Assembly: GCA_000004985.1 (NCBI GenBank)
Contig: GG738914.1
DNA length: 64,000 bases
Source: Naegleria gruberi
Taxonomy: Eukaryota
Strand: one strand, 5' to 3'
Positions 1,734-53,700 of this stretch are shown one piece after another (the stretch's first letter is position 1; the number at the start of each line of letters is the position of its first letter). Both the position numbers and the translations under genes were made by a program. The notes under the pieces were generated by a model. That model had not been told where the DNA came from. It saw only the letters and a list, made by a program, of their open reading frames with translations, and made no database searches.

Positions 1734-4700
1734 GAACCAAATGCGAAACACAATTGTGTGGAGGTAAATTACCAACAGATCCGAAAGTTTGTGGAGGAAG
1801 GGGTGTATGTTATAATGGAGATTGTGCGTGCACTTTGGATGAAAGATTTGGTTCAACCCAACACGTTGGACTCACTTGTGAAATACCAGTTTGTTTCCCA
1901 CTCCTTGTAGATCCGTACAGACGTGAATACGAATGTGGAGGACATGGCACATGTGTAGAAACCAATATCTGTGATTGCCATGTTGGATATGGTGGTTATG
2001 ATTGTACCAAGACTGGTTTCAAATGTAGTGGAATCAATGCAACAAATTCCAAGGTGTGTTCTGGGCGTGGACAATGCATCGATCAAGATTATTGTCTTTG
2101 TCAATCGGATGATTATGGTGGAGTTGACTGTTCGACACCCAAGTGCAATGGTTTTCTAGCAACAGAAGAGGGAGTGTGCAATGGACGAGGTCAATGTCTG
2201 CAACCAAATAATTGTACTTGTACTTCTGGATTTAGTGGAACAAATTGTGAACTTGATGCCAGTAATCAACAAGTTGAGAGAATAGTGACTTGTTATGGAG
2301 TGCTTTCAAATGATTCTGTGAATGTATGCTCTGGTAAAGGATCTTGTTTTGGAAATGATTATTGCAGCTGTCAGATAGGTTATACAGGTGCTCGGTGTAA
2401 TGAAACATTTTGCTTTGGAGTTTTACAAACAAGTGACAAGACATGCTCTGGAAATGGTGTTTGTTCATCATTGAATACTTGTTCATGCAATAATAATTCA
2501 CCCTTTTTGAGATATGTGGGTGAGGAGTGTGGAATTCTTCAATGTCGAGGAGTTGACTTGGAATTTTACAACTCCACCGATGTGAGAGTATGTTCAGGGA
2601 GAGGAGCATGCATAGATCATTTAGGATGTGTTTGTAATGAGGGTTATTATGGAGAATCTTGCCAAATCTCTTCATGTTTTTCAGTTTTATCAAATAGTTC
2701 ACAAGTTTGTAATGGTCATGGAATTTGTCAAGATTTGGACAATTGTGAATGTTATTCAAATTCTACAAATGGATACTGGTATGGAGATGATTGTTCGGTG
2801 TGTGCTAATTCCTATGAAGGAAATCTCTGTAATCTAAAGAAATCTTGCAACTCTTCCACTACTTGTATGAGCTTGGGTGAGTGTTCAAACAATGATTTAT
2901 GTCGTTGTGAAAGCTCTTTTGATGGAGAGAATTGTGAAGAATGTGCTCTTGGTTATTATGGCCCTTTGTGTGAAATATTTTGCTCTGCAGAATTGAATTG
3001 TTCTTCGAATGGAGTGTGCTCAAGAGATGGATTTTGTGATTGCTATCAATCGAGAGAATTGGGTTATTTCCAATCAGAAAACTGTTCCAAATGCTCGCCA
3101 GGATACTTTGGTAATGACTGCTCAACGTTTGTTGGATCAAATTTCACTTTTAACAATTATGGAAATGAGCTAATTTTGAGAATAATTCCTCCTCTCAATA
3201 TTGACAAGATTCAAACTGAAAATGAATGCAAAACTTTCTTCCCCCCTAGATCTAGATTAAAACTGGGTGGAGAATTCACTTGTCATTGGATAGACGTTTA
3301 CAACGGATATCTTTCAGTGCTGATTCCTCAAAACGCAACAATTATACCAGGAGATTTCTTAGAGTTTAATGTTTATTCATTTGAACAATATGCAAAACCA
3401 GCTCAGTATCGAAATATCACGTCATTTGCAAGTGATGTGAACAAGATTATCACGCAACATGCTGACATTGAAACTGCAACAAGTTTCCAGAAAGGAACAA
3501 CCTTAACCATCAGGGGAAAGAGTTTGATAAGTATTGAAAGAGAAAGAGAATTGTATTATGAGTGGAGTATTGTAAATTCTAACCCTACTATGAATTCACT
3601 AAATAGTCATGTCAGCTCTCAGTCAGGATGGGGTAAATCAGTCATTTCCATTCCAAGTTCTTTCACATCAAGTGTGAACCTTATCAATCTCAAACTAAGA
3701 ATTGCAAATTATTATCAACAATTTGGATCTGAAAAGCAAGTTATCTTACAAGATTTGTCAACTGCCAGCTCATCAGTCAATCAAGTACAAATCAAAATTA
3801 CAACAGCAAGAAATAGATTATACATACTCAATGATATACTTCCTTACAAAATCAATTGCAAATTGACCGTAAACGGTGTGCAAGTCACCAACATTATATC
3901 GAGCGGATACTCAATTGAATGGAGTCTAAGTCCTGATCTTGGAATAGGTTTAGCAAATCTCACCCTTATTACATTGAAACCATATACAAGTGACAATAGC
4001 ACTGTTTTGTTTACATCTGAAGATACTCTGTATTATGATTTCTACAATGTACCTTATACAGTCTTTAATGTGTCAGCTGTTGTTAAGAAAAATGGAACTG
4101 TCGTCTCTAGTGACAGTTTACAAATTCATTTCAATTTATTTGAGCAAAAGCAGTATGGTATTACACTGTCTCGAACACCTACTGATATGACCATTGATGC
4201 TCAATATCCAGCTGTCATATCATTATCCATTCCACCAGAAGTAACAATTTTATCAGTTGAGTGGGCATGTTTTGCCTATCACATGTATAAGGGAAAGTGT
4301 CACGATCAATATCAAGCAATTATTGCTCAAAGTGGAAACAAGACAAGAATTGAACTTCCAAAGAGTGCCATTTTCCTTCATTATAACACTGTAAAATTCT
4401 CTGTAAAAATTACAACCACTTCAGGAGTTGAGTATCGAGATACAAGTTTTTCACCAAGTGCCTCCTATCAAATTCCATATGCAGTCACAGAGACTGCCTT
4501 CTTCAGTTCTGGCTATAGAGGACCATTTAGATTGTATTCTCTTCATGGAACTAAATTCTCTTTCGAATATCGTTTATTTGATAGCACAGAACCATCCATA
4601 GCATCAGCAGGTGATGCTCCAGCCACAACTGGAACAGTTACAGCATATAACGTTTACAGTAACAATCAAATTACATTAAGTGCCGCCAATGGAATAACTA

Positions 4701-5308
4701 CCTACACAGACACTTACTACAGTGGTCCAAATTTGGCTAAATTAGTTAAAGTTGACATGACAAAATTTTCATCTCCAATTTATTTCCAAGTGAAATTTAC
4801 TTACAAAACTTTGGAGATGAATGTTAGACAATATTTAATTATTGGAACAGTTCCAAGAGAAAGGGTGGATATTAATGTGAAAGTTGTTCCATTCGTTCAA
4901 AATCCAGAGTTCAGCAATTACATTTTTCAAGTTTCGAATGATGTAGCAAATTCATTCTATGAAGTAACTGTTTCTCTTTCTCTGAGATATAAGAATGACA
5001 CTAGCATGTCCTACTCATTTGGTTCTCTGTCCATGTTTAGTTTAAATAGAGAGGTAAAAATTGCCTTTCCACCTCTCTTGGATTCGTTTACAATCTATAA
5101 GAAAGTAACCTATTATACGGATTCCTGGGTTGGGTACGAACATGAAGAATCACTTTATATCTACGAAGAAGAAGTTGCCTCATTCCCTGCCTCTCCACAC
5201 AGTTCTGATCCATTCATTAAGGCGATGCAATCAAAAATTAAGATTGCATTCGAAAAGGGATCGAATTATCTTTCTTCAGCTTCATCCATTATGAATTCAT
5301 ACTATTAA
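1734..5308 (+). CDS. large secreted or surface protein: N-terminal tenascin-type EGF repeats followed by about 750 aa of beta-rich Ser/Thr/Asn-rich domain
   Basis: There are about 13 tandem copies of the Cx3-5GxCx4-6CxCxxGYxGxxC module (for example CSGRGQCIDQDYCLCQSDDYGGVDC). The track ORF 1754..5308 begins at a TTG, and the reading frame is open back to the 3' splice site at 1733. Confidence 0.7.
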
Positions 5309-5505
5309 ATCAACAATTATTGTCCCTGGAAATAGTCAACTCGTTCTGAATACTTACAAACTGGTTAACAAAAAAAACCGCCAAAAATAAATTTAAAAAA
5401 ATAACGCAAACCATAACTGCATGGATGACCTTTTGTGGTGAATGGAATTTTGAGCGAAAAGAATAACCTTCATAGCTTGTTATTGCCTTGAGCGATAATT
5501 TAATA

Positions 5506-5602
5506 TTCAAGCTGATGAGTAAGACACGGCGTCGGGTTACTCCTTCGCGCTCAATCATACATGTGGAAATAACATCTTCCGGGCGTTTTAACCCTGATTG
5601 AA
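5506..5602 (+). ncRNA. candidate C/D-box snoRNA
   Basis: A terminal stem TTCAA (5506-5510) pairs with TTGAA (5598-5602). It brackets a C-box-like CTGATGA (5512-5518) and a D-box CTGA (5594-5597) about 80 nt apart. The element is a GC-richer island inside AT-rich intergenic DNA. Confidence 0.3.
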
Positions 5603-5675
5603 TATATAGAAAACAGAATAACAATTTTATGCTTTTGAATTTCTCATTAATTCTTTACATCAATTTGAAAGAAAA

Positions 5676-6752
5676 ATGGACAGATTTCTCACTAGTTCTG
5701 GTCACGAAAAGCATTTTTCTGGTGAGTTTTTTATTTTGAATTTTTGTGATGCTATTCCATTATATTAAAATCATCGGATCTAACAAATAGCTGAGGATAC
5801 AATATTTACTGATGATATCTGTGAGGAAATTTCATCATTTCTTGAATCTTTTTTCCTTCTAAATAATTGTTTATTAATTTCAAAACAATGGTTTCGAATA
5901 ATTAAAGAAAATGTGAAACATTCACTCAGTTTTGAGAAACAGATGAATTATCAAGCAAGTGAACAATTATTACAAAGTCAATTTTTAGGAAACATTATTG
6001 AATTGAGTTTTTCTAATCAGACTTTGACTCAAAGTGGTGTTTTGTCAAATGTTATCAAATCTCTAATTTTAATGAAAGAATTAATTACGTTGGATATTTC
6101 TTACCAAAAAATAGGTGATGCAGGATCGAATACAATTGGTCAATTGATCAAATTGACAAAACTTTATGTTTGTGGAAATGAAATCAGTAGTGAAGGAGCC
6201 AAGTCAATTGGTCAATTAAAAAATCTTACCTATCTCAGTGTCAGAATTAATCATCTTGGATCTGAAGGAGCCAAATCAATTGGTCAACTTGAAAAATTAA
6301 GAACACTTTACATTGCGCACAATCAAATTGGAGATGAAGGAATCAAATCAATTAGTCAATTGAAGGAATTAACAACATTATATACAGACTACAATCAAAT
6401 TGGAAGTGGAGGAGCCAAATCAATTGGTGAAATGAAACAATTAACAGAACTTGGCATTTCTGAAAATAATATTGAAGACGAAGGGGCAAAATCAATTGGT
6501 CAACTAATATATCTTAGAAAACTCTCAGCATCTCGATGCAGAATTGGTGATGAAGGGGCTGAATCAATTAGTAAATTGATTAATTTAACAAAACTCAGTA
6601 TTAACACAAATCCAATCAAAGATGAAGGAGCCCTCCACATTATTAAATTACCCCAACTGAAAAAGCTTGACATCACTCGGTGTAGTATTAAAAGTGAAGG
6701 GAAAAAAGTGCTCACCGAAATGAAACTAGTATTCAAAACTCTCTATCACTAA
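5676..6752 (+). CDS. F-box / RNI-type leucine-rich-repeat protein (two exons; intron 5722..5790)
   Basis: Exon 1 (ATG 5676, MDRFLTSSGHEKHFS) joins across a 69-nt GTGAGT...CTAAC...AG intron to an exon encoding an F-box-like motif (ICEEISSFLESFFLLNNCLLISKQWFRII). About 9 LRRs of the type LxxLxLxxNxIGxEGAKSIGQL follow. The track ORF 5913 starts at a GTG. Confidence 0.7.
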
Positions 6753-6959: not shown

Positions 6960-9223
6960 AAATTTAAACGTTTATTAATCGAATGAACCCGACGGGTTCG
7001 TCCATTTGGAACGTCTTATTGAATTTTTAAGATTTTGTTGTATTGTTTTTGTACTCTTCCTCCAAAAAGTGAGAGGCCTCCTTGTATCTTGGGCCATTGT
7101 TCTTTGATAATACCTTGAATAGGTTCTGTCAGAATACCAAAGATATTCAGTTGGAATGAGTTTGGTGTTAATGTTTCTGTCCTCTCTGTGCTTAGTACTG
7201 GTTCGAGATTGGTATTTTTTTTGATTTCTTCAATCATCCAGTTTCTAGCTGAATTCATTTCTGGGCATTCTATGAAGAGGTGTTCTGTGTCAAGGTTTTT
7301 GTTACATGTTGGGCATTGTGGGTTGTCTACTATGAGGCTTCTTAAGTGTCCATTTATCATGAGCCTCCAGATTGAGTATTTGTGAGTTGGGGTGGTATGT
7401 TCTTTGAGGTACTTGAGATTTGTTCTGTTGATGAGTTCGGATGTTCCTTGATCGTAGAGCTTTTCACTAAGTACTCCTTTGATTCTACTTTTCCAAACTT
7501 TTTTCGAATTGGTGATAATTAATTGCCCTTGAGTTAGTAGATGTTGGGGTGTAATTCGATGTCCTATTCTTGAGGCTTGTTTGGCTTTCTTATCAGCGTA
7601 GTTATTTCCATCTGTTATTCCTGTATGAGCTTTTGTCCATTCGATGGATGCTTGAAGTTTTTTAGTGCTGATGAGGTTGGTAATTTCATCTTTGATTTGC
7701 TTAAATTGACCTTTGTAATTTGTGTTGTTAATTATTTTGACTGCTATTTCACTGTCAGTGAGTACCTTTGCATTGCTGTTTGGTGGTATGATGTGTAGTG
7801 CTGTTGTAATTGCTGATAATTCAGCCATGTTGTTTGAGTGGTATGAGTGGAGCTTGTATTTGTATCCTTTTGTAAATTCGTTGTTCTGAATGATTACACT
7901 GAATCCTACTTTGTTTTCTGATTTGGATCCATCAGTCCATATTGTGAATTCTGAGTAGGAGTATTGTTCATCTTTTTCCTTTTCCAGAAGTTGATGATTG
8001 GTGTTACATTTTGTTGTGGTAAGTTTGTGTTGTTTTAGGATGTAGTGGAATTTCTCAAATATGTTGTGTAGTTTTGTTTTGTTCGTGTTACAGTTATTAA
8101 TTCCGTACTGTACTGCTTCTCTGACAAGTGGGTTACTTGAGTGGAATTTGTTGATTAAGTTATTGCAAAGGATTGAGTTGGCTATGTATTCGAGGTTTGG
8201 AATTTCTAGTCCTTTTCTTTCGAATTGTGCATACATTATGGATGGTTTTACCTTTGCATCGATCTTCAGTGATCTTTTTAGGTTACCCCTTATTGTTGAG
8301 TCAATTGTTTGTAGGCGAGGATTGGAAATTGAATTTCCTCCTGCTAGATGGATAAAACTACTAATTGTCTTGCCCATTATGATTCTTTTGAGATTTTCTG
8401 GTTCTATCAAATGGATTGGAAGTATTTTTAGTATTTGTGTTACTCTAGCTTCTCTTTTGTCAATTTCTTTTGTGAAGAGATGGTCTTCTGTGATGTAGTT
8501 TCCTAATGTTCTTTGATTGGTTTGTCTTGGTATTAACGTATCGTCAAGCTTAACTGTGAAGTCTTTAAGGGCTATTCTTTCCGGTGTGACAGAAGTTATT
8601 GATTTAGAAGCATTGATTTTCATTTTGAGATTCCCTATCCATTTGTTCAGTTGTTTGAGTTTGGTATTGTGTTTCTTGTTGGGTTGTGTTACTAATGAGC
8701 AGTCATCAGCAAAATTAAGAGTTCCTATTTCTTCAATTTTGAATGATGGTGTGACAGGTATTTTCCAATTCTCGATTTGGTAATCTATTATAATTTGGGT
8801 GATTGTGTTATACATTAGTGGTGCTAGTGGACATCCTTGTGGAACACCTCTTGTTTTGGTGAGAGGGTTAATTAATATGTCATTCCATTCTATATATGCT
8901 TTGTGATTGCTGTATGCATTGATTATGAATGTAGTGAGATTTGGTGGGAATTTACAATGTTTCATAGCTAATCTAAGGACACAATGTTCTACACCGTCAT
9001 ATGCATTTTCTATGTCCAAGTTGGTGATTACAAATGCATTTGTTTTCTTGTATTTGACTCTTAATGCTTGGATTACTAGAATATGGTTGTTAACTTCTCT
9101 GTTGGATGTGAATGCTTGTTGTCTAATATTGATGTTATCTTTTGCCCATTTACCTATTTTCCTTGCTATGATGTTAAATAATAGTCTATATAGTGTACTA
9201 TTTTTTATTAAAAAAATGATCAA
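6960..9223 (-). mobile_element. 5'-truncated non-LTR (LINE-like) retrotransposon copy
   Basis: A single 735-aa ORF encodes RT, RNase H and a Cys-motif domain. There is no endonuclease or ORF1 upstream, and a 3' UTR-like stretch with a hairpin follows the stop codon. Confidence 0.65.
7016..9223 (-). CDS. LINE ORF2 fragment: reverse transcriptase, RNase H, and a C-terminal CCHC-like zinc motif
   Basis: RT motifs are present (NLDIENAYDGVEH, LNFADDCSLV). An RNase H domain follows (TIWTDGS ... MAELSAITTALH ... NNYADKKAKQA), then a C-terminal Cx2C...H...C motif (CPTCNKNLDTEHLFIECP). Confidence 0.75.
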   Translation of the reverse strand: MIIFLIKNSTLYRLLFNIIARKIGKWAKDNINIRQQAFTSNREVNNHILVIQALRVKYKKTNAFVITNLDIENAYDGVEHCVLRLAMKHCKFPPNLTTFIINAYSNHKAYIEWNDILINPLTKTRGVPQGCPLAPLMYNTITQIIIDYQIENWKIPVTPSFKIEEIGTLNFADDCSLVTQPNKKHNTKLKQLNKWIGNLKMKINASKSITSVTPERIALKDFTVKLDDTLIPRQTNQRTLGNYITEDHLFTKEIDKREARVTQILKILPIHLIEPENLKRIIMGKTISSFIHLAGGNSISNPRLQTIDSTIRGNLKRSLKIDAKVKPSIMYAQFERKGLEIPNLEYIANSILCNNLINKFHSSNPLVREAVQYGINNCNTNKTKLHNIFEKFHYILKQHKLTTTKCNTNHQLLEKEKDEQYSYSEFTIWTDGSKSENKVGFSVIIQNNEFTKGYKYKLHSYHSNNMAELSAITTALHIIPPNSNAKVLTDSEIAVKIINNTNYKGQFKQIKDEITNLISTKKLQASIEWTKAHTGITDGNNYADKKAKQASRIGHRITPQHLLTQGQLIITNSKKVWKSRIKGVLSEKLYDQGTSELINRTNLKYLKEHTTPTHKYSIWRLMINGHLRSLIVDNPQCPTCNKNLDTEHLFIECPEMNSARNWMIEEIKKNTNLEPVLSTERTETLTPNSFQLNIFGILTEPIQGIIKEQWPKIQGGLSLFGGRVQKQYNKILKIQ

Positions 9224-10271
9224 TCAACAAGACAACATTTCTGCATCACCTTCTCTCACTAGCAATAACAATCATCAGAGACCAATCAGCACACCCGATG
9301 ATCGTCCAACAACTGTTAACATTCCATCACAAATTAGTCAAAATTCTAACCGACCAGTGGTTGCCCCAATTTCTTCCCAACAGCACAAGGATACAAAGTA
9401 TATTATGGTGGCTGATATTGCCTCTGCAAAGATTTTTGCAAATATTATGCACTGTATTTGTTCCGATAAGAAGAAGGAAGATGCTTGGGTGATTTGCGAA
9501 ATTATGGAGGAAGGAATTAAATTCTACATTCAAGACAAATCAATTCAAGGAGTTGCTAGTATGAAGAGGGATATTTTCCAAAATTATATTTATAATGGTG
9601 CAGCACATGCAAAATATTCATTCGAAATTAATGTACAAATCTTGATTCAATGTTTGATTTTATACGGAGCTAATTCATCACAAGGAACAATTGTGAAACT
9701 TTGTTATCCTGGTGTTGAAAATACATTATCATTACTTTTGGGAGAAGAACGTGTAGTAACAGATTGTAATATTAAGATTAGGCATGGAGCAGAACCTTTA
9801 GATTTTGAATTCAAAGGTTCTGAAGAAACATGTAAAATTGTTTTAAAGAGTGAAGTTATGACTGATGCTCTTTCAGAAATTGATTGGCTTGCAAAGACTA
9901 TGGAAATAGGTGTTGAAATGGATGTCCAAGAGCAAGGTGAGGACCAAGTTGCCATAACTTTACCAAAAGGAAAATTATTTTTCAAAACAGTTGATAATGT
10001 GATTGGATCTATGGATATTATTATTCCAAGTACAAATGAGGGTGTATGTTCCTTTGAGGTAAATCACACCCAAATGAGCGTATTTAAATTATCTCATATT
10101 CAACAAGCTTTAAAGGCTTTACCACATTCTGATAGAGTTTGTATTAGAATGAATGAACAAGGTTTACTACAATGGCAATTCATGGTTCGTGCAACTGAAC
10201 CAATAACCTATGTAGATTACACAATGCTACCAATTGATGCAGAATTAGAAGATACAGATTCCACCTTCTAA
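9216..10271 (+). CDS. RAD1: cell-cycle checkpoint protein Rad1 (9-1-1 clamp subunit) homolog
   Basis: The translation aligns by eye to human RAD1 across the protein. KYIMVADIASAKIFANIMHCI resembles YSLVASLDNVRNLSTILKAIHF; LKSEVMTDALSEIDW resembles LQSEGLREAFSELDM; VCIRMNEQGLLQWQFMVRATEPITYVDYTMLP resembles VSIRTDNRGFLSLQYMIRNEDGQICFVEYYCCP. The first in-frame ATG is at 9216 and is followed by an N/S/P-rich N-terminal extension. Confidence 0.7.
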   Translation: MINQQDNISASPSLTSNNNHQRPISTPDDRPTTVNIPSQISQNSNRPVVAPISSQQHKDTKYIMVADIASAKIFANIMHCICSDKKKEDAWVICEIMEEGIKFYIQDKSIQGVASMKRDIFQNYIYNGAAHAKYSFEINVQILIQCLILYGANSSQGTIVKLCYPGVENTLSLLLGEERVVTDCNIKIRHGAEPLDFEFKGSEETCKIVLKSEVMTDALSEIDWLAKTMEIGVEMDVQEQGEDQVAITLPKGKLFFKTVDNVIGSMDIIIPSTNEGVCSFEVNHTQMSVFKLSHIQQALKALPHSDRVCIRMNEQGLLQWQFMVRATEPITYVDYTMLPIDAELEDTDSTF

Positions 10272-10834: not shown

Positions 10835-11341
10835 TCAACAGATAATGCAAGACTTCTTTTGCTTGTAGAATTTGTCAATAAAATCAAGTTGGTTCTTGTT
10901 GATGGCTCCTCTTCTCTTCTTTCGGAGGAATTGAACTGCTTCTAATCCTGTCATGTTGCATCGTTTAATAAGTGCCAAAGCTACAAGAATAGGAGCTCTA
11001 CCAAGACCAGCAACACAGTGAACAGCAATACAAGGAAGATCATCGGAATCTCCTTCTTTTGGTGGGAATACTTTATCAACAAGATCCAACCAATCTTGGA
11101 TAACGTGCTTTGGTGGAGAAGAACCATCATCAAAAGCCCAATCAAAGAATTTAATACCTGCTCGTTCAACTACTTCCTTATCATAGGTTGCTTGGCAAAC
11201 TCTGACACAGTGAGTCACATTATTTTGTTTAAATTCCTTAACGTAAAGATGAATATTAGTATCGGATGGAGCATCAGAAATTAAAAACTTGATACCACCA
11301 TGTTCGATGAGAGATGGAGCGTTTGTGAGAGTTACTGCCAT
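10835..11341 (-). CDS. PRL-family (PTP4A-like) protein tyrosine phosphatase with a C-terminal CAAX prenylation box
   Basis: The P-loop VHCVAGLGRAP matches the PRL consensus, and the alignment to human PRL-1 holds throughout (WAFDDGSSPP resembles WPFDDGAPP; VQFLRKKRRGAINKNQL resembles VQFIRQKRRGAFNSKQL). The protein ends in CIIC. It is a single exon with an ATG start. Confidence 0.85.
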   Translation of the reverse strand: MAVTLTNAPSLIEHGGIKFLISDAPSDTNIHLYVKEFKQNNVTHCVRVCQATYDKEVVERAGIKFFDWAFDDGSSPPKHVIQDWLDLVDKVFPPKEGDSDDLPCIAVHCVAGLGRAPILVALALIKRCNMTGLEAVQFLRKKRRGAINKNQLDFIDKFYKQKKSCIIC

Positions 11342-21701: not shown

Positions 21702-21772
21702 TGCGTCGACCGGGAATTGAACCCGGGTCACGGCGATGGCAACGCCGTATTCTACCACTAAACCATCGACGC
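21702..21772 (-). tRNA. tRNA-Gly (anticodon GCC)
   Basis: The reverse complement GCGTCGATGGTTTAGTGGTAGAATACGGCGTTGCCATCGCCGTGACCCGGGTTCAATTCCCGGTCGACGCA folds as a cloverleaf with a fully paired 7-bp acceptor stem. The anticodon loop is TTGCCAT, and the sequence closely resembles eukaryotic Gly-GCC. Confidence 0.9.
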
Positions 21773-24560: not shown

Positions 24561-27500
24561 TTAGACGGTCATCAGTTCTACATCTTGTGGTTTTGATTTT
24601 TCAAATGTTCGTTTCTTCCTTCTTAAACATCTGACAATTAAAATTGAAATAATAACAATCATGATTCCACAACAGCAGACAACTAATAATCCAAATAATC
24701 CAAACAGACCATACAATGCCAGATTTGAACTCGTTCTTGGTGAAATACTTGTTTCATGTTCTAGTTGTGTTATGGTTGAGTTGGAAATTGTCTTTTCAAC
24801 AACTATGAGTGAAGTGACAGATTTCGAACAATTACAGTAAATTACTGGTGCTGATATTGTCGTGGAACAAGTGTGATTGGACGTAAGAGAGATGATATTG
24901 TCAATTAGAACACATTCAATAGTTGAAAAGACACTTGTTCTTTGTTCAATATTGTCGCTTGTACTTTCAAAAGTATTTTTCACATTGATATTTGAAAAGT
25001 TATACTCATTTCCAAGATTGAATGAGAATGTAATATCTGCAGTAAACTTCTTTTCAACAGAAACAATCTTACTGAGTGACTTGAAAGTTGTTTTAGTCTC
25101 AATTTCTTCCAAATCTGAAATTTTGATTGTTTGAACATTTGATACTTGTTTCAAAGAATAATAAACTCCCAAATGGTCAGTAACTGAGAAGAATGATGCT
25201 TCCAAAACAAGTCTATTAGAAACACTTGTATCAATAGCATCAAATACAAGTGAGCTATTTCCACCATCAGATGTCATTAATTTCTTCACTTGTTGATTCT
25301 TATAACTCAACAGAGAAACAGTTGAATAATGAGAAAGGTTTACACTATAATCTTTCTGACCTACGTAATAACTTCTCATCAACACATTGCTGAATATCTT
25401 AATTGAATCTAACACTCTATACGTGTCTTGCAGTTTACTGTCACCAGTTAATCTAATAATATTGTTAAATAAGCTGCTACATAACTTTTCTACACCCTCA
25501 GCAACTCTGAATTTCGTGTTTTTGGCAGCCATTACCATCAATTTTTCAGTCAAGTTGAATAACTTTTCGAATGGAAGTGAATTAATTGAATCACAATTTG
25601 AAGCCAAAGATTCCAACCCAAAAGAATAAACTCTAAAGTGAATGTCTGAAATCAATTCTAGAGGATTTCTCTGATTTAATCCAAGTATCATACTGTCAAG
25701 CATTTCATCTCTCAATTCATAAGCAATACCCGCTTCGTTTTCAGCCAATTTTCTTGATGTTATCAAATTGGAAATCATTAACTCTGATGTTCTTGAAATA
25801 GTTGCAGAATTGAAAACCAACTTGGCACTATCACTTGGCAGAAGAGATGCAGCCTTTAATTGCCAAACTTTCACTTTGTTTTTGATTTGTAACATTGAAG
25901 AGGCAGTGGGTGTTTTAACTTCCACTGATTTGATAAACTCAACTGATGCACCAGTATCCAAATCAACAATATCCACAAATGTATCCATAACATTTGAACT
26001 AAATGGAGAAGGAAGATAGGAAGCAAACTTCTCACCCAAATTGTAAAGTGGAATTTTAGTTCCTGACTTGTCATCAATGAACCCAAATACAAAATCAATT
26101 GATTGTTCAGCATTTTGGCATCCAGGACATGAGAACGAGAATTCAGTTTCCAATGCATAACCATATGATGGATTAATATAACACAAACATGATTTTGGTG
26201 ATTTGACAATTTTGAATTTGTACGAGAATCTTGATGAAAGATTATTTCTCCTGTCTGAAACTTGGAATTCAATTTCATACTCTCCATCTTCCAGTAACTC
26301 AAGAAGCGACAGAATTAATGATGAAGATTTAGATGGTTGAGTAGACATTTTAGAGATCATTGAATTAGTCAATGAATTACCATTAATTGACCACTCTCTG
26401 ATCATATCCTCTTCATCAGTTTGTTTTTCATCTCCTCCCAAAATAACTGATAATTGTAAACTCAATACTTCATCTTTGAGAACTTTGAATCTGTTTGGAT
26501 AAACAGAAATTAAACTTATCACTGGTGGAATTAACAATTCAGTGTTTGGATAATCAATGTCAAGAGATTTAGAAATGGAACGTAGTCCTTTCTGAATGCT
26601 CAATGTCAGAGAAACTTTTGAAAGACTTCCTTTAGGAATTTGACATGTCGATGATTTGGTAATGGCATAATGTGTTAAAATATTGGAAATTGTTGAATCT
26701 TGACATGCTTGATTTGAAACTCTATCAAAACATGACCAATTCCATGAATCTGAAACTGAATCTATATTATCAGGATCTGAATTCTCAACTATCACATCAG
26801 CTTGATTGGTATTCAAACTAGAAACATAAATATTTAGTAATAAATCTCTTGATTTGCTTGAAAGTGGAATTAAAAGTGTTGCGTTCGAATTTGGATTGAA
26901 TTTTGAAATTGCTTTTACACCAAATGAATAAGATTCATCCCCATTTGATAATATTTCTGTAATAACCAAATCATTATTTGAATCTATTTGATAATTAATA
27001 GTGGATGGACCTGAGAGTTTCTCCCAAATATAGTCAAATTCCCTGTTATCAAAATAACATGAAGGTAATTCAATAGATTTCTTAACAATTATTGGGAGCG
27101 AACCCTTTTCAATATTGGTGAGTGACATTTTGTTTGTAAGCAATGAAAGAGTAGGATTTGGAACAATTGATTTGATAATTTCAATAAATTTCTTTTCACT
27201 CCTTGCGCCACTGAGAGAACTTTCAGCAATCAAGCCAAAGACATAGCTTCCTGAAATCGAAATACTATTTGAGGTCAAAGTTGAATTGAAATCACCAAAA
27301 GAAACCTGTTGCAAGTTGAAATTTGAATCAGGAGATGATTCAATAGACCAAATAAATTTCACAGGTTTCAAATCACCACAATATGATCCAGAAGCATCAA
27401 TTGCAATTTGTTCACATGGACTAATTGTATTCTTAAATGAAATATTGATTATTGGTTTCACAGGGTTGTTGGAGGGAAGCAGTAACAGTGAGATATATCT

Positions 27501-30500
27501 TGGAATTGGGGTGTAAATAATGTCCAAACCATTAATAATTAAAGAAATATTAGAATATGGAATTATAGAATATTGACCTCCAAGTTCAATAAAGAAATTT
27601 CCGTCTTTCCAATAACAAGATGGATTTTTACCCAATTGAGAAAAACTTTTCTCATTCACTACCTTGCTACACTCTAAAACTCCATTGGATATGACAATAG
27701 AAGTGTTAAAATGAAATTCCAAAGTATTCCCCAAAGAGTTGAATTTTGGTTGAGATGAAACAGATAAAAAACATCTACTTCCAAAATAACCAGACTCACA
27801 TTGACAATAATCTTCACTCAAACAAGAGCCATGTCCGGAACAAACGATAGCATTGGATTGCAATATGCCAAAACAAGAAACTTTCTTATTTTCACAACTT
27901 ACCCCTTCATAAAGAGAATTACACTGACACGAATCATTTGAAAAACAATTTCCATGTCCACTACAAACTCTGGAATCATTTGCTTCATGCCCAAAACAAA
28001 AACTGATTGGTGGAGATGTGGAAATAGTACTAGTTGAGTTAGTTGTACTAGTAGTGCTATTATTTACATTACTACTCGTGGAATTATTAATTGTACTGTT
28101 GACCGAACTAGTCGAGTTTTTGTTTAAAGTTGAATTGTTAGAAATTGTACTATTGAAAACTGTTGAATTAGCAATAGTGTTATTATTATTGTAAACAGTT
28201 GAATTAGTTGACATTGTATTGTTAAGATTTGTACCATTAACATTTGAATTTGTGACATTATTAATAGTGTTATTCCAAACAGTAGTTGAATTACTTGCAT
28301 CCACAGTAGTATTAGAAATGCTTGTTGAATTATTATCAATGCCTGTTGTGGCATTATTATATGAATTATTAAAATTAGTTGTATTTGTAAATGTAGAATT
28401 GTCAACCGATCTATTGTTACTAACTGTTCCATTGCTACTACCAATAGTATTATTACAATAAACACCAATGGTACAATTGGAAGTTGAATTAAATGCTGTG
28501 TTATTGCTTAAATTGGTAAAGTTAGAAGAATTGTCAACATTTGTGGTATTACTTAATATGGAACTATTTTGGTTTGTTGAATTATTCAAATCTAGTGATG
28601 AATTATTGAAAATTGTTAAATTGCTATTGGTAGAATTATCAAAACTGGTGTAATTATTGGCTGATGAATTATTAGAAATTGATGTATCGTTACCAAAATT
28701 TGAAACATTCAAATTTTGATTATTACCTGCTGTTTCATTACAATTCACACCAAAGTAATTTTGATTGCAATCACATAAATCCTTGCCAACACATGTTCCA
28801 TTTCCATTACAAACATTAGCGTCAGTAGAAGGGAAATCAAAACAGCTAATCACACTGCAATCTTCACCATAGTGATTATCTTTACATTTACAACTATTAA
28901 AATCAACACATTCTCCGTGTCCATTACAAACATTAGACTGATTTGACATTATTCCAAAACAAGTAGTAAGAGAGCAATCTTCAGCATAATAATTATCATA
29001 ACATTCACAAAAATCATTCAATGTACAATCACCTCTACCAGAGCATGAAGCATCATTATTGTAAAAAATACCAAAACATGTAAAATTTTGTAAACAATAC
29101 CCATATCTGTCTCTTTCACACACAACATTGTAAATATAAATACCATTAGAATTTGAAAAAAGTATATCTTCATCCTTAGTAAAACTGGAAGTTCCAATAG
29201 AAAAGGATTTTAAATTTGAATTTGTAAAATACTTGTCCTCGCTTGGCGAATACCAAAAATATGGTACAACCTCACCGTAATAACTCCCACCAACAAAGTC
29301 TGAAAGATGAGAGTTTGATGAAGTAGTAAAAGCAGTTTCACTGTCAACAGTTCCATTTCCAATGACGTCAATAACAAAGCCATCTGCACGAACTGCCTTC
29401 TTAATTAAATTTCGGTTAGACAGTTTTACAAAGTAAATATCTCCATTTGAATCAATTGTCCAACCATTAGTACTGATAGGATGATTTTCTATTGGAATTT
29501 TCTTTGCCTTACCTGCAATTAGAGTTGTGTTTGTTTTGTAAACTCCTTGATTACTTGATATTATTAACGTTCCATTTCGTAAGGTTATTGATAATGGCTT
29601 AAACGGCATTTCATAGATTGGTTTGAATATATTTGAAGAACTGACTTGTAAAATACCATATGCTGTACTAACACCTCCCTTTCTTTCAAAGGCTACTAAT
29701 ATTTCATTATTTTCAGTGCATAAAATAGCTTGCACCAAGAATGTATATGTAAAGGTCCCAGGAGGGGGTATTAATGATAAACTTATGCTAGTTGTTAGCC
29801 TGGTGACTAGATTATATTTTGTAAGTCTGTAGGAATCCTTAACTGAATATGCTATTGTGGTGTCATCACTCATCATACATAGATACATGGTTCCACTCTC
29901 TGTCAATACTTTCAAGTTACTATCTGTTTGTGGGTCGTAATCAAATATGGAATAACCACTAGAGTAATAAATATGACCAGTGGATTTTCTGAAAGTGATA
30001 TCATCTATAGTGTTTGTTGTATTTAAAACTTTTCTAACAAATGTTGAATTAACATATTCAAGTAAATAGTTTTTGTAAACAAAAAAAAGGTTGTTTGAGA
30101 TTGGATGAAATCCCATAGGTTGATCTTCTAATCCAGTGACAATATCGTCTGCAGGCGCAGGAAAATCAGTAAAATCAGGGCTATCTTCTTTTTTTCCAAC
30201 GAGTGGTCTAACCTTGTTTTGATTGTCAATATAAGAAATCAAATATTTGGTTCTTAATATCAAATTTCCATTTTTAGGATTTGATGTGATTTGATGTAAT
30301 GAGTCGAATTCAACATTCATTGCATCTGAATTCAAACCAGAAAGACTCATTCCTTGACTATACCCAACACCCAGGACACATTTAATTGTCAGATCAGATA
30401 AACTAACTTGTATAATTCTAAACTTATTGTCACTGTAATAGATAGAGTTGTTCAAATACTGAATATACATTAAATTGATAATAGAGATATCCAATGAAGA

Positions 30501-31973
30501 TTGCCCATCATATTGATAGCCATTTGTTCCTGAAATATTGCCCGCAATTAGTTTTAAAGATTTTGTGTAAATATTAAACTTGTTAATAAAGCAATTAGCA
30601 TTACCATTAGCGTCTGCTACAGAATTAACAATATATAAATCCTCCCATGTTTTTTTATCAGTAACTACTTCAGAAATTGGCATTTCAAAAGTTATTAAGG
30701 GATTCAAAAGTCCAGTCCTTTCAGACAATCTGAATATTGATTTTTTATCAGTTGAAAATAGGATAATGTCTCCATTTCTATATGTTTTGATTGGTTTCAG
30801 TCCTAATACAAACTGAAAACCGTATGAGTAAGTCGAATACGAAAAATCAATTGCTAATTTTCCAACAATAGTTTTGATTTTTGAATCCTGATTGGCCTTT
30901 ACAATATTCCCACTGAATGAAATGTAATAAGTAAAGTAATTCTCCTTTGGAACGATTTTCATTCCCTTAATAGAAGGTAATGAAACATTTTGCAAAGTTT
31001 GGTCAGTTCTTGTAAAATCGAGAGACTCTCCAACTCCAAACAATAACACAATTCTTCCATCTTTTGAAATCTTTCTAATAATGGTATCATCACTGAAATA
31101 AATTTCACTATCAATAACAGCCATCAACTTGGGAGAATTAAGACATGCGTTTGTGGCAAACCCGTCATAAGTTACGTTAAACGTGCAACTGTCTTTCAAA
31201 CCAGATACCTTGTAAAATCTACCATTCTCAATCTTCATAATTACATATATATTATTAATAGAAATAGTAAAATAAACGGTACCATTGCTTGCAAGAATGG
31301 AAGTTGGTGTCTTAATGTCGGTTGAACTCGCAATGGATCCATCAACAGGTATGGTCGTTGATACAGCATTAGATCCTGCAATTGTAACAATACTTCCTGT
31401 TGTATTCAGCTTTCTAATCTTGTTGACTTCAATAGTGTACACGTTACCCATTTCATCGTAGGTAAAGCTAACTACTGAGAATTGAAAAGAAGCAACTGTT
31501 CTCACTCTATTATCAACCTTGGAAATTACTCTCAATTTAAACGAGGAATCAACATAGGTACATTCTCCTGTTAAGGATGTTGTAAGATACTTGACCGTGG
31601 CCGAAACTTGTGTAGTATCAACTCCATCACTTGATGATGTTCCCTTACCCAAGTAAATACTCACAGTCTTATTTGCCTCGAAATATCTTCTTAAAATTGT
31701 TCCATCACGGAAAACAACGTCTCCACCCTCCATAATACATATTTCGGTGGGTGTTATTGATACCAAGTTATAAGGAAGTGGTGAGGCTGTTTTAAAATCA
31801 ACAGGATTTACAATTGCTTTCTTCGTAGACAAGTAATTCGGAATAGCCTCAACCATACAAGTCTGAAGAAGAAGAATACAACAACAACACAAACTTGCAG
31901 CCACCGCAACAAGAAGCGCCTTAAAAAACAATGGTGATGGCGCACAAAGGGAAGGAGCCTTAATCATCATCAT
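24561..31973 (-). CDS. giant type-I surface protein (2470 aa): signal peptide, beta-rich N-terminal region, tenascin-type EGF repeats, an Asn/Ser/Thr-rich sequon tract, a second EGF cluster, a long beta-rich stalk, and a C-terminal TM with a short basic tail
   Basis: The ORF begins MMMIKAPSLC with a hydrophobic leader. Two EGF clusters share the Cx3GxCx5CxCxxxYxGxxC module. The C-terminus reads LFGLLVVCCCGIMIVIISILIVRCLRRKKR. Confidence 0.75.
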   Translation of the reverse strand: MMMIKAPSLCAPSPLFFKALLVAVAASLCCCCILLLQTCMVEAIPNYLSTKKAIVNPVDFKTASPLPYNLVSITPTEICIMEGGDVVFRDGTILRRYFEANKTVSIYLGKGTSSSDGVDTTQVSATVKYLTTSLTGECTYVDSSFKLRVISKVDNRVRTVASFQFSVVSFTYDEMGNVYTIEVNKIRKLNTTGSIVTIAGSNAVSTTIPVDGSIASSTDIKTPTSILASNGTVYFTISINNIYVIMKIENGRFYKVSGLKDSCTFNVTYDGFATNACLNSPKLMAVIDSEIYFSDDTIIRKISKDGRIVLLFGVGESLDFTRTDQTLQNVSLPSIKGMKIVPKENYFTYYISFSGNIVKANQDSKIKTIVGKLAIDFSYSTYSYGFQFVLGLKPIKTYRNGDIILFSTDKKSIFRLSERTGLLNPLITFEMPISEVVTDKKTWEDLYIVNSVADANGNANCFINKFNIYTKSLKLIAGNISGTNGYQYDGQSSLDISIINLMYIQYLNNSIYYSDNKFRIIQVSLSDLTIKCVLGVGYSQGMSLSGLNSDAMNVEFDSLHQITSNPKNGNLILRTKYLISYIDNQNKVRPLVGKKEDSPDFTDFPAPADDIVTGLEDQPMGFHPISNNLFFVYKNYLLEYVNSTFVRKVLNTTNTIDDITFRKSTGHIYYSSGYSIFDYDPQTDSNLKVLTESGTMYLCMMSDDTTIAYSVKDSYRLTKYNLVTRLTTSISLSLIPPPGTFTYTFLVQAILCTENNEILVAFERKGGVSTAYGILQVSSSNIFKPIYEMPFKPLSITLRNGTLIISSNQGVYKTNTTLIAGKAKKIPIENHPISTNGWTIDSNGDIYFVKLSNRNLIKKAVRADGFVIDVIGNGTVDSETAFTTSSNSHLSDFVGGSYYGEVVPYFWYSPSEDKYFTNSNLKSFSIGTSSFTKDEDILFSNSNGIYIYNVVCERDRYGYCLQNFTCFGIFYNNDASCSGRGDCTLNDFCECYDNYYAEDCSLTTCFGIMSNQSNVCNGHGECVDFNSCKCKDNHYGEDCSVISCFDFPSTDANVCNGNGTCVGKDLCDCNQNYFGVNCNETAGNNQNLNVSNFGNDTSISNNSSANNYTSFDNSTNSNLTIFNNSSLDLNNSTNQNSSILSNTTNVDNSSNFTNLSNNTAFNSTSNCTIGVYCNNTIGSSNGTVSNNRSVDNSTFTNTTNFNNSYNNATTGIDNNSTSISNTTVDASNSTTVWNNTINNVTNSNVNGTNLNNTMSTNSTVYNNNNTIANSTVFNSTISNNSTLNKNSTSSVNSTINNSTSSNVNNSTTSTTNSTSTISTSPPISFCFGHEANDSRVCSGHGNCFSNDSCQCNSLYEGVSCENKKVSCFGILQSNAIVCSGHGSCLSEDYCQCESGYFGSRCFLSVSSQPKFNSLGNTLEFHFNTSIVISNGVLECSKVVNEKSFSQLGKNPSCYWKDGNFFIELGGQYSIIPYSNISLIINGLDIIYTPIPRYISLLLLPSNNPVKPIINISFKNTISPCEQIAIDASGSYCGDLKPVKFIWSIESSPDSNFNLQQVSFGDFNSTLTSNSISISGSYVFGLIAESSLSGARSEKKFIEIIKSIVPNPTLSLLTNKMSLTNIEKGSLPIIVKKSIELPSCYFDNREFDYIWEKLSGPSTINYQIDSNNDLVITEILSNGDESYSFGVKAISKFNPNSNATLLIPLSSKSRDLLLNIYVSSLNTNQADVIVENSDPDNIDSVSDSWNWSCFDRVSNQACQDSTISNILTHYAITKSSTCQIPKGSLSKVSLTLSIQKGLRSISKSLDIDYPNTELLIPPVISLISVYPNRFKVLKDEVLSLQLSVILGGDEKQTDEEDMIREWSINGNSLTNSMISKMSTQPSKSSSLILSLLELLEDGEYEIEFQVSDRRNNLSSRFSYKFKIVKSPKSCLCYINPSYGYALETEFSFSCPGCQNAEQSIDFVFGFIDDKSGTKIPLYNLGEKFASYLPSPFSSNVMDTFVDIVDLDTGASVEFIKSVEVKTPTASSMLQIKNKVKVWQLKAASLLPSDSAKLVFNSATISRTSELMISNLITSRKLAENEAGIAYELRDEMLDSMILGLNQRNPLELISDIHFRVYSFGLESLASNCDSINSLPFEKLFNLTEKLMVMAAKNTKFRVAEGVEKLCSSLFNNIIRLTGDSKLQDTYRVLDSIKIFSNVLMRSYYVGQKDYSVNLSHYSTVSLLSYKNQQVKKLMTSDGGNSSLVFDAIDTSVSNRLVLEASFFSVTDHLGVYYSLKQVSNVQTIKISDLEEIETKTTFKSLSKIVSVEKKFTADITFSFNLGNEYNFSNINVKNTFESTSDNIEQRTSVFSTIECVLIDNIISLTSNHTCSTTISAPVIYCNCSKSVTSLIVVEKTISNSTITQLEHETSISPRTSSNLALYGLFGLFGLLVVCCCGIMIVIISILIVRCLRRKKRTFEKSKPQDVELMTV
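27990..28720 (-). repeat. low-complexity Asn/Ser/Thr-rich coding tract (dense N-x-S/T sequons) within the 2470-aa gene
   Basis: The translation here is dominated by NxS/NxT tripeptides (NSTNSNLTIFNNSSLDLNNSTNQNSS...). This tract also generates spurious ORFs on both strands in the track. Confidence 0.6.
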
Positions 31974-39377: not shown

Positions 39378-39450
39378 TGCCGACACCAGGGATCGAACCA
39401 GGGACCTTAAGATCTTCAGTCTTACGCTCTCCCAACTGAGCTATGTCGGC
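39378..39450 (-). tRNA. tRNA-Phe (anticodon GAA)
   Basis: The reverse complement GCCGACATAGCTCAGTTGGGAGAGCGTAAGACTGAAGATCTTAAGGTCCCTGGTTCGATCCCTGGTGTCGGCA is nearly identical to eukaryotic tRNA-Phe. The acceptor stem is perfect, and there is one U.U mismatch in the T-stem (positions 51/63). Confidence 0.8.
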
Positions 39451-50700: not shown

Positions 50701-53700
50701 AAATAGAATGATGTAGAAACAGCAATAATATCAGTTTGCATAGACCCATACGTGATGGAAATACTTGGTGAAATCAGCATTGGTGAATATTTGCCTTGTG
50801 CGTATGGTATTGAAGGATTGTACTGAATTGTCATTTGGCAATTAGAGTCAATTACTATTGGGAAAGTTGAAACTAGAATTTTGTCTTCATAATTTTTGAG
50901 TGTTGCACTTTGAATAGCCAAACAATTGAATTTGGCCTTATTTAGCTTGAAATTGTTAATTGTAAACGATTGGGTACTTTGCACAAAGAGCGCACCACTG
51001 GAATCCAAAGTGTCAATAGTAATGGAGTCACTGGCTATTGGCAATAAATAAGATGAAGTAATAGGTATTCTAGAAATTCCATTAAATACATAAATTCCAA
51101 AATCAGCATAGAAAATTCCATTTTCCAAAACTGGATTATTCAATGTAATATCAATGCTACACACAAAAGTTGATAAAGCAGGAGAATATGTAGCAGTAAA
51201 GAATTGTCCATTCAAGAGGCAGTAATAATTCCAAGTTGCTTCTAAAGTATTATTCTTTGTTGTTTGTACGGATAGTTGCCCACTAACACGACCTGCAATT
51301 GACTGAAGAATATTAGGTGAAGTGGTAATTATACTTTCCTTTACACCATGATAGTAAACAACATTATAAATTGGAATTGACTTGGTCATAACACTTTCCT
51401 TCACTCTAATAACAACTGAGTTTTGTCTTGGAGATGTTACTGGAGGGAATGAAACAGTACAATTGAGAGAATTACCATTAAACGAAGCACTTGAAATACT
51501 TCCATCTACGGAAACACAAGAGTACGAATATTGGGCACCAGAGAATTTGAATTTGAGATAAATTGACAATGTAGAAGAGCCAACATCATTAGTAACAAAA
51601 AATGGTGAACCAATAACATTAGTTGAACTAATCATATCAAAACCAAGTGACTTTCCAACACGGTAGGTTCCTATGTTTTGTCTGGATGCTGTTCTTCCCT
51701 TATATTTGAGCTCCAATACGTAGGAACCAGCATCTGTTGCATTGATATTGCCACACGTTACCAGAGAGCTGGTTTGAGAAACAGCTTGAATACTCTGTAC
51801 ATTAGCACTGAATTGATTGAGAGTACCATCAGAGGTAGCCAAACATTGAAAATTAGATACATTAGAAGGCAACACATTTTGAATAAGCAAGCTGAATATC
51901 AACCCACTAGATGATCCAGTATTTTCAATAGTGAAACTAGGATACTGATATGAAATAGTTGCATCGCTGTTAAGAACAATGAAATCCAAAGAATAATCCA
52001 ATATTTTGGCCTTAATTATTCCAAAACTATTTGATAGCAATCCTGCAGGAATTGGAGCCACTACCCTAGTTGGATATCCTGGATAGGCAGTGTAATATGA
52101 GAGTGCTGTCCATGAAGAGCCTAAAAGCAAGTAGACTTGGCTTCTCAAAGAAAAAGGCAAGTCATACTTGATTTCTACTGAATCAGAGTCACTAGAAGGC
52201 ATTATATTGCTATCAGATCTGAGTTTCAAATCACCCACATAGGTATTAGTGAAATTGAACAGTGAAAAAGTTGCTGATTGTCTATCTTTGTAAGCCAATG
52301 TGAGATTTCCATTGTTGCTAATATTCATAGCTGTTGAATTGAATGAGAAAGTACAATTAAAAGTGATATCAAATACATTTTCATCAGTATCAGAAGTTAC
52401 TCGAGAGGCATAAAGGAATACTCCCTTAAATGATACTGAAGATGAACTGGTTCTGTAAATACAATGTAAAGCATTTTGGTAAGTGGTAATACTAACTGAA
52501 GTAGCATCGAATTTTGATCTAACAGTAAACTGAAGAGTGGAATTATTTGGATCTATGATAGCATACAAGTTATCTGGAAACTTTGAAGTCACCTGAGAGG
52601 GTGATGGAACTCCAAGTTCACAATTTCTTCCAGTTCTCAAATTTAAACAAGCACAATCGTTGGTTACAGGTGTACCAGAAATGAAACACGAACAATATCC
52701 GAAATCACCACAAATACCTCTTCCTGAACATGCATTTTCGTCTTTCTCAAGCAGTCCATAACAAATTTTCTGGTCACAGAATTGGCCACCGAAAAAAGTG
52801 TTTGTACAGACGCACACATCTTTTGCAACACAATTACCTCTAAGATTGCAAACAGTTCCATCAATGGAGAGAATACCATTACAAGTAGTGAATTTACACG
52901 CATTATCGGCAGGGTCATTATAAAAATTAGGGTTACAAACACAAAGATTGTCACCAGGGAGCTTTTCTGTTCCAGGAACAACAGTACAGTTACCATTAAC
53001 ACATCCATTAATCATACCATGACAATAAACATCTTGGCAATAATTACCACCAAACTTGTAACCATACTGGCATGTGCACTTCTCTGGTTCATTACAGCTA
53101 CCTCTTCCATTACACACTAAAGGATCATCAAATGGCAATCCACCACACATTCTTTTACAAGTAGATCCTCCATATCCAGTATCACAAAATTCACAATTAG
53201 TGCCATAAGAATGAGGAGTAGTACAGGAGCAAGTATCAAACGAAACACATGAGCCTCTCCCTGAGCAAACACTAGAATTCTTACCAGATACGCCAAAGCA
53301 AAAGGTACTTGGTGTAGCTAGTATTCCAATTTCGTTATCAGTTAACACTCTGTCGAAAATAACAAATTCGTCGATTGCTCCAGTCACCTTATCGAGGAAG
53401 AATGTTACATTTCCTGATCCTGGAGATCTCAAATTTCCAATAGTGAGAGTACCATTTGGTGGAATTTTTTGGCCCTTCTTGTAATCCAGTTTGAAATCCT
53501 TCAATGTTCCATCAATATAGAGTTTGAGAAGTCCACTATCAGAACTCCAAGATACTGCAACATGACGCCAAGTTTTACTATTGATGTTTACAGTTGTATC
53601 CCATGAATTAGAGGCAGTAAACAAATATCTCAATACGTGTGGTTCATTAATAGAAACTTTCAAGCTTCGATAGTCAGTAAGAACGAATCCAAAATATGTA

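Follow-up and report, generated by a model that had tools for sequence, protein, structure and literature searches.

The window analysed here comprises the whole 64-kb stretch of Naegleria gruberi nuclear DNA, and all positions refer to it. A spacer of 367 nt separates two genes on the + strand. The upstream gene, which ends at position 5308, encodes an EGF-repeat protein (Pfam EGF_2 and teneurin-type EGF domains); the downstream gene (5676–6752) encodes an LRR protein and was modelled with an ATG at 5676 and a 69-nt GT..AG intron (5722–5790), the spliced product of this model being in frame with the open reading frame at 5913–6752. The spacer carries a predicted box C/D snoRNA of 103 nt (5503–5605, + strand; 85 nt from the start of box C to the end of box D). 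Its start is 194 nt past the upstream stop codon and its end 70 nt ahead of the downstream ATG, and the snoRNA and both flanking genes are all on the + strand.

Further downstream, an open reading frame of a non-LTR retrotransposon (735 aa, with reverse-transcriptase and RNase H domains; 7016–9223, − strand) lies between the LRR gene and a Rad1 gene. A TTG-start open reading frame (8907–10271, + strand) overlaps the end of the retrotransposon frame, and only its downstream part corresponds to Rad1. A PRL-type phosphatase is encoded at 10838–11341 (− strand); over its full length it matches a predicted N. gruberi protein with 100% identity, and its identity to the N. fowleri protein is 90%. Antisense to the snoRNA, a TTG-start open reading frame of 104 aa (5310–5624, − strand) had no database relatives (one word-sharing candidate, none scored) and is almost certainly spurious. 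For the last 705 aa of the EGF-repeat protein (3191–5305, + strand), no homologue with E <= 1e-10 was obtained among the 8000 word-sharing candidates scored, and the N. gruberi EGF-repeat protein was itself absent from this 8000-candidate result; the 705-aa region is either lineage-specific, or absent from the database, or has relatives beyond the 8000 candidates scored. Two canonical tRNA genes, for tRNA-Gly(GCC) (21702–21772, − strand) and tRNA-Phe(GAA) (39378–39450, − strand), were identified by both ARAGORN and Rfam. The GC content of the window is 0.28–0.38 throughout, and no rRNA was detected within its 64 kb by using Rfam.

A sequence-only reading had proposed a box C/D snoRNA in a GC-rich island of this otherwise AT-rich spacer, and the composition agrees with it: the GC content is 0.44 in the element and 0.49 between the boxes, compared with 0.33 in the upstream and 0.20 in the downstream flanking spacer. 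Box C (UGAUGA, 5513–5518) and box D (CUGA, 5594–5597) were found at the positions proposed; the former aligns to box C of snR47 and Afu_455, and the latter was also placed by Rfam alignment. The purine position of the 7-nt box C form, RUGAUGA, is occupied by C5512, a minor deviation. The enclosing stem had been given as 5 bp (TTCAA, 5506–5510, with TTGAA, 5598–5602); these bases do pair, but the helix is longer and extends over 8 bp, ATATTCAA (5503–5510) pairing with TTGAATAT (5598–5605). Its 5′ strand AUAUUCAA, which would be stem I of the kink-turn, and its 3′ strand UUGAAUAU are paired in both the minimum free energy (MFE) and the centroid structure, the latter keeping this terminal stem as its sole helix.

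The terminal stem directly adjoins box D, and on its other strand it is separated from the G-A of box C by three nucleotides (GCU, 5511–5513); U5513 is both the third nucleotide of this bulge and the first base of box C. The pairs expected at the sequence level are G5514.A5597, A5515.G5596, U5516.U5595 and G5517-C5594. By established rules, an asymmetric 3-nt bulge followed by a G.A/A.G, U.U and G-C stack corresponds exactly to a predicted C/D kink-turn, and the canonical arrangement put forward earlier is borne out at this level, with the tandem G.A pairs in register.

Between boxes C and D, the internal features are less regular. A GC-rich spacer of 31 nt (5519–5549), nominally the second guide, precedes the D′ box candidate CUCA (5550–5553), which the Rfam alignment places opposite the D′ box (CuGA) of the snR47 model and which departs from the consensus at one base. 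The C′ box candidate UGUGGA (5562–5567) lies within the block ACAUGUGGAAA, which the snR47 and Afu_455 consensus sequences also contain. The C′/D′ candidates are all degenerate and were placed by alignment to snR47. The D guide CGGGCGUUUUAAC (5580–5592) follows, ending one nucleotide short of box D. The element is single-copy in the window, and none of its 14-mers recurs there.

The chance level of this architecture was estimated by using 500 dinucleotide-preserving shuffles of the window, counting pairs of TGATGA and CTGA at a distance of 45–200 nt that have, in kink-turn register, a stem of >=4 bp. The bare motif occurred nine times in the real window and 7.5 times per shuffled window, and by itself it is not significant. 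For stems of >=8 bp the frequency was 0.18 per shuffled window. The fold does not exceed that of shuffled sequences in stability (z = −0.21); C/D snoRNAs typically show no unusual fold stability. Since the motif alone is at chance level and the fold energy is ordinary, the case for a snoRNA rests on the guide.

As reference for the guide search, metagenomic Naegleria-type rDNA was used in place of N. gruberi's own rRNA record. Metagenomes were scanned with GAACCTGCGTAGGGATCATTT, which a check of the literature showed to be the standard Naegleria ITS forward primer (present in 20 papers), and 37 heterolobosean rDNA loci (L004–L040) were obtained. The Naegleria ITS reverse primer is also present in many of the loci bearing GTTAAAACGCCCG. 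SSU, 5.8S and LSU rRNA were confirmed by using Rfam on loci L004 and L028, both of which contain the GIR1 branching ribozyme of an S516 twin-ribozyme intron; this intron is characteristic of Naegleria rDNA. These two contigs (14161 and 14434 bp, respectively) are apparently near-complete Naegleria-type rDNA units of approximately the size of the circular rDNA plasmid, and the LSU match in L004 wraps around the contig ends. In both, the S516 intron with GIR1 takes up 1.3 kb of the SSU gene; other Naegleria-type loci are without it. Removal of the 1309-nt intron from L004 gave an SSU of 2030 nt, on which the intron-less numbering used below is based.

In an unbiased search of the full 103-nt element against the SSU, 5.8S and LSU rRNA of L004, one match was outstanding: CGGGCGUUUUAAC forms 13 consecutive Watson-Crick pairs with GUUAAAACGCCCG, SSU nucleotides 707–719. 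The second-best Watson-Crick run in the element is 9 nt long and involves box C itself. The sequence-only reading had assigned the guide to approximately 14 nt upstream of box D; 13 of these 14 pair perfectly with Naegleria-type 18S rRNA, and the last, adjacent to box D, does not. The duplex spans positions 2–14 5′ of box D, in keeping with both the length (>=10 nt) and the fifth-nucleotide rule that characterise snoRNA antisense elements. The fifth nucleotide upstream of box D, U5589, pairs with A710, the first A after GUU.

The combination of boxes C and D, stem and a guide of >=12 nt within 0–2 nt of box D was found 0.006 times per shuffled window, and that with a guide of >=13 nt in none of the 500 shuffled windows. 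Additional pairing near the 18S target, of the kind described for snR47, was sought and amounted to 6-mers only. Elsewhere in the window, a 13-nt LSU-antisense run abuts a CTGA at 30721 (together 30708–30724, − strand); it lies inside an open reading frame of 2470 aa (24561–31973, − strand), lacks a box C and stem, and was attributed to chance. An 11-nt rRNA-antisense run abuts CTGA at 51829–51832 (− strand).

In 16 of 16 Naegleria-type loci, intron-bearing and intron-less ones alike, the 18S context GUAGUUAAAACGCCCGUAGU is invariant. Because the stretch is identical in all of them, N. gruberi's own 18S rRNA almost certainly carries the same target. A second group of 13 rDNA loci, without the Naegleria ITS reverse primer, has GUUAAAACGCUCG at this position, which would pair with the guide via one G.U; the cognate guide of this group should carry one changed base or rely on a G.U pair. 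Heterolobosean contigs of the second group with U for C at the target include L010, L016–L018, L021, L027, L030, L031, L033 and L039.

The complementarity check that the sequence-only reading had called for thus selects, by the fifth-nucleotide rule, the homologue of yeast Am619 and human Am668, and agreement with a known 2′-O-methylation site supports the box C/D interpretation made there. The yeast 18S counterpart is A619, the A in GUUAAAAAGCUCG; the numbering of the yeast sequence used gave the right base at nine of nine published Nm positions. The same nucleotide, homologous to yeast A619 and human A668, is the one addressed by the D guide of the U36/snR47 family (Rfam clan CL00051). In yeast, snR47 directs this methylation, and Am619 is approximately 98% modified (PMC5199042). 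Methylation of the homologous site has been mapped as Am668 in human (guided by U36A/B), Am621/623 in Arabidopsis (AtU36), Am612 in Dictyostelium (CD25) and Am604 in Ostreococcus (PMC8817022; PMC11542601). A710, as the predicted target, corresponds to one of the most widely conserved SSU methylation sites.

Comparison with yeast also revealed covariation. The target is GUUAAAAAGCUC in yeast and GUUAAAACGCCC in Naegleria, and the guide is GAGCUUUUUAAC in the snR47 consensus and GGGCGUUUUAAC in the element. The guides differ solely at the two positions at which the targets differ, that is, by two compensatory double changes.

No comparable partner was obtained for the D′ spacer (5519–5549). Against SSU, 5.8S and LSU rRNA it gave no Watson-Crick run of >=9 nt, and against the 37 rDNA loci including their spacers no consistent 10-mer. 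A D′-anchored search returned two equally weak LSU sites, 1261–1272 and 730–741 (10 Watson-Crick pairs, one G.U and one mismatch), neither of which is homologous to an Nm site mapped in yeast, human or plants, and both were set aside as chance matches. In the U36/snR47 family, the expected target of the D′ guide is the LSU counterpart of yeast 25S A2220; at the Naegleria equivalent (LSU 2336–2348, GUGAAGAGAUUCG) the element forms only 6 bp beside D′ (five Watson-Crick and one G.U). Because Dictyostelium CD25 is also without it, the A2220 target may not define the family outside opisthokonts and plants. The second target of CD25 is 26S U3254, which differs from that of yeast snR47 (PMC8817022), so the second guide of the snR47/CD25 lineage is apparently quick to change.

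The segment 5519–5549 is most probably a spacer or a decayed second guide. A role in antisense pairing with an snRNA, a tRNA or an mRNA is rather doubtful, as is one in accessory or chaperone pairing with pre-rRNA; with such a working D′ spacer, the element would be a snoRNA of dual function, found in a deep-branching eukaryote. An 8-nt core of the spacer, GUUACUCC, pairs with GGAGUAAC in the LSU, 30–40 nt downstream of the A2220 equivalent. This is approximately where accessory pairing would lie, a weak hint to be read against the roughly two 8-mers of this kind expected by chance across the rRNA.

Conservation was assessed at the N. fowleri PRL-Rad1 locus (contigs L001–L003; L001, 20.5 kb) by using blastn-short and nhmmer; the element was not found there, and only chance words of 8–12 nt were returned. 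This locus keeps the PRL-Rad1 adjacency, and synteny stops at Rad1, short of the snoRNA position. Scans with a pattern gave one match in prokaryotic genomes and six in viral contigs; these are all bacterial or viral and are consistent with chance. No Naegleria snoRNA study or catalogue was found in the literature searched.

In the proposed mechanism, the 8-bp terminal stem would join boxes C and D into a kink-turn, which, given the universal eukaryotic machinery, is expected to nucleate a particle of Snu13, Nop56, Nop58 and fibrillarin. The D guide, at positions 2–14 upstream of box D, would then pair with nucleotides 707–719 of the 18S pre-rRNA, as it does in silico, and fibrillarin would 2′-O-methylate A710, as the +5 rule and the conserved modification in other eukaryotes suggest. 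The RNA might be made as an independent transcript, or be processed from the 3′ region of the upstream gene or from the 5′ region of the downstream gene. From its sequence, we consider it very probable that the element is a functional box C/D snoRNA guiding 18S methylation.

Other readings account for parts of these observations. An AT-rich spacer might hold TGATGA, CTGA and a short inverted repeat without any function, and the near-equal counts of the bare motif in real and shuffled windows, the Rfam E value of 6.6 and the ordinary fold energy would all be expected of such an accident. It is nevertheless very improbable, as the 8-bp stem and the 13-nt guide in register would have to coincide, the nucleotide selected would have to be a deeply conserved Nm site by accident, and the guide changes would have to be compensatory with respect to yeast; by rough arithmetic, expected coincidences remain well below 1 even across a genome of ~40 Mb. 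A non-expressed or decaying copy (a pseudogene or retroposed paralogue), with the functional copy elsewhere, would explain the degenerate C′/D′ boxes, the orphan D′ guide and the lack of an orthologue at the syntenic N. fowleri locus. Mismatches would be expected in such a copy, but box C, box D and the 8-bp stem are intact, as are 13 of 13 guide positions. The divergent C′ is similar to its functional counterpart in snR47, and a GC-rich island in AT-rich surroundings points to constraint. We regard such a copy as improbable.

The position of the element, 194 nt past one stop codon and 70 nt before the next ATG with everything on the + strand, would equally suit a cis element, in the 3′-UTR of the EGF-repeat gene or in the promoter or 5′-UTR of the LRR gene, and its bounding 8-bp inverted repeat would suit a MITE. 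The absence of another copy or common 14-mer in the 64-kb window argues against a MITE, and neither a MITE nor a cis element explains an rRNA antisense sequence in the exact snoRNA register; a location in a UTR or precursor transcript is, moreover, compatible with a snoRNA. Both are highly unlikely, and a functional guide snoRNA is the reading that we retain.

A well-supported predicted box C/D snoRNA gene is thereby added for Naegleria gruberi at a position for which Rfam annotates none at threshold. Mapped methylation and guides for the Am619/Am668 site come from fungi, animals, plants, a green alga and Amoebozoa (PMC8817022; PMC11542601). A guide for it in Discoba would support placing the modification, and probably the guide lineage with it, in the last eukaryotic common ancestor. 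The covariation of guide and target offers a clean textbook case of co-evolution between a guide and its rRNA. Together with the method (rDNA complementarity and kink-turn geometry), the element can serve as a seed for annotating the snoRNAs of Naegleria, including those of the pathogen N. fowleri. This kind of snoRNA is already known and ancient; the prediction opens no new biological question and will not surprise the specialist.

Among known snoRNAs, Saccharomyces cerevisiae snR47 is the closest in form. At the Rfam gathering thresholds nothing was reported at the locus, the families of clan CL00051 included. In a permissive search of a 501-nt region with 4227 families, snR47 (RF01203; gathering score 61 bits) was the best box C/D match, with 21.4 bits and E = 6.6; the score is not significant, and the alignment is full-length (model positions 1–96). 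Both RNAs have the C/D architecture and a similar length (96-nt model, 92 nt aligned), and in both the D guide addresses the homologous 18S A in the same register and is followed by an unpaired C immediately before box D. Box C (UGAUGA), the C′ block ACAUGUGGAAA and the 3′ end UUUUAACCCUGAUU are also common to both, the last being identical. They differ in the D′ box, which is CUCA here and CUGA in snR47, and in the D′ guide, which in yeast directs 25S Am2220 and here forms 6 bp at the equivalent site. The divergent C′/D′ motif of snR47 is fully active in yeast (PMC3116282), and the degenerate UGUGGA and CUCA are for this reason not evidence against function.

Aspergillus fumigatus Afu_455 (RF01860; gathering score 48 bits) also gave a weak full-length match of 17 bits, below its threshold, with UGAUGA and CAUGUGGAA in common; the alignment is poor in the 3′ guide region. 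Human SNORD36 (U36A/B/C) and Arabidopsis AtU36 act on the homologous 18S site and are similar to the element by target; after Rfam's clan competition, snR47 was the one family of the clan retained. The human SNORD36 genes are intronic, whereas the element is intergenic. Dictyostelium discoideum CD25, with the homologous SSU site (17S Am612), is likewise similar by target, and it has a second target, whereas none is assigned to the element. By its predicted target, the element is the functional counterpart of snR47, U36, AtU36 and CD25, and it is probably their evolutionary counterpart as well.
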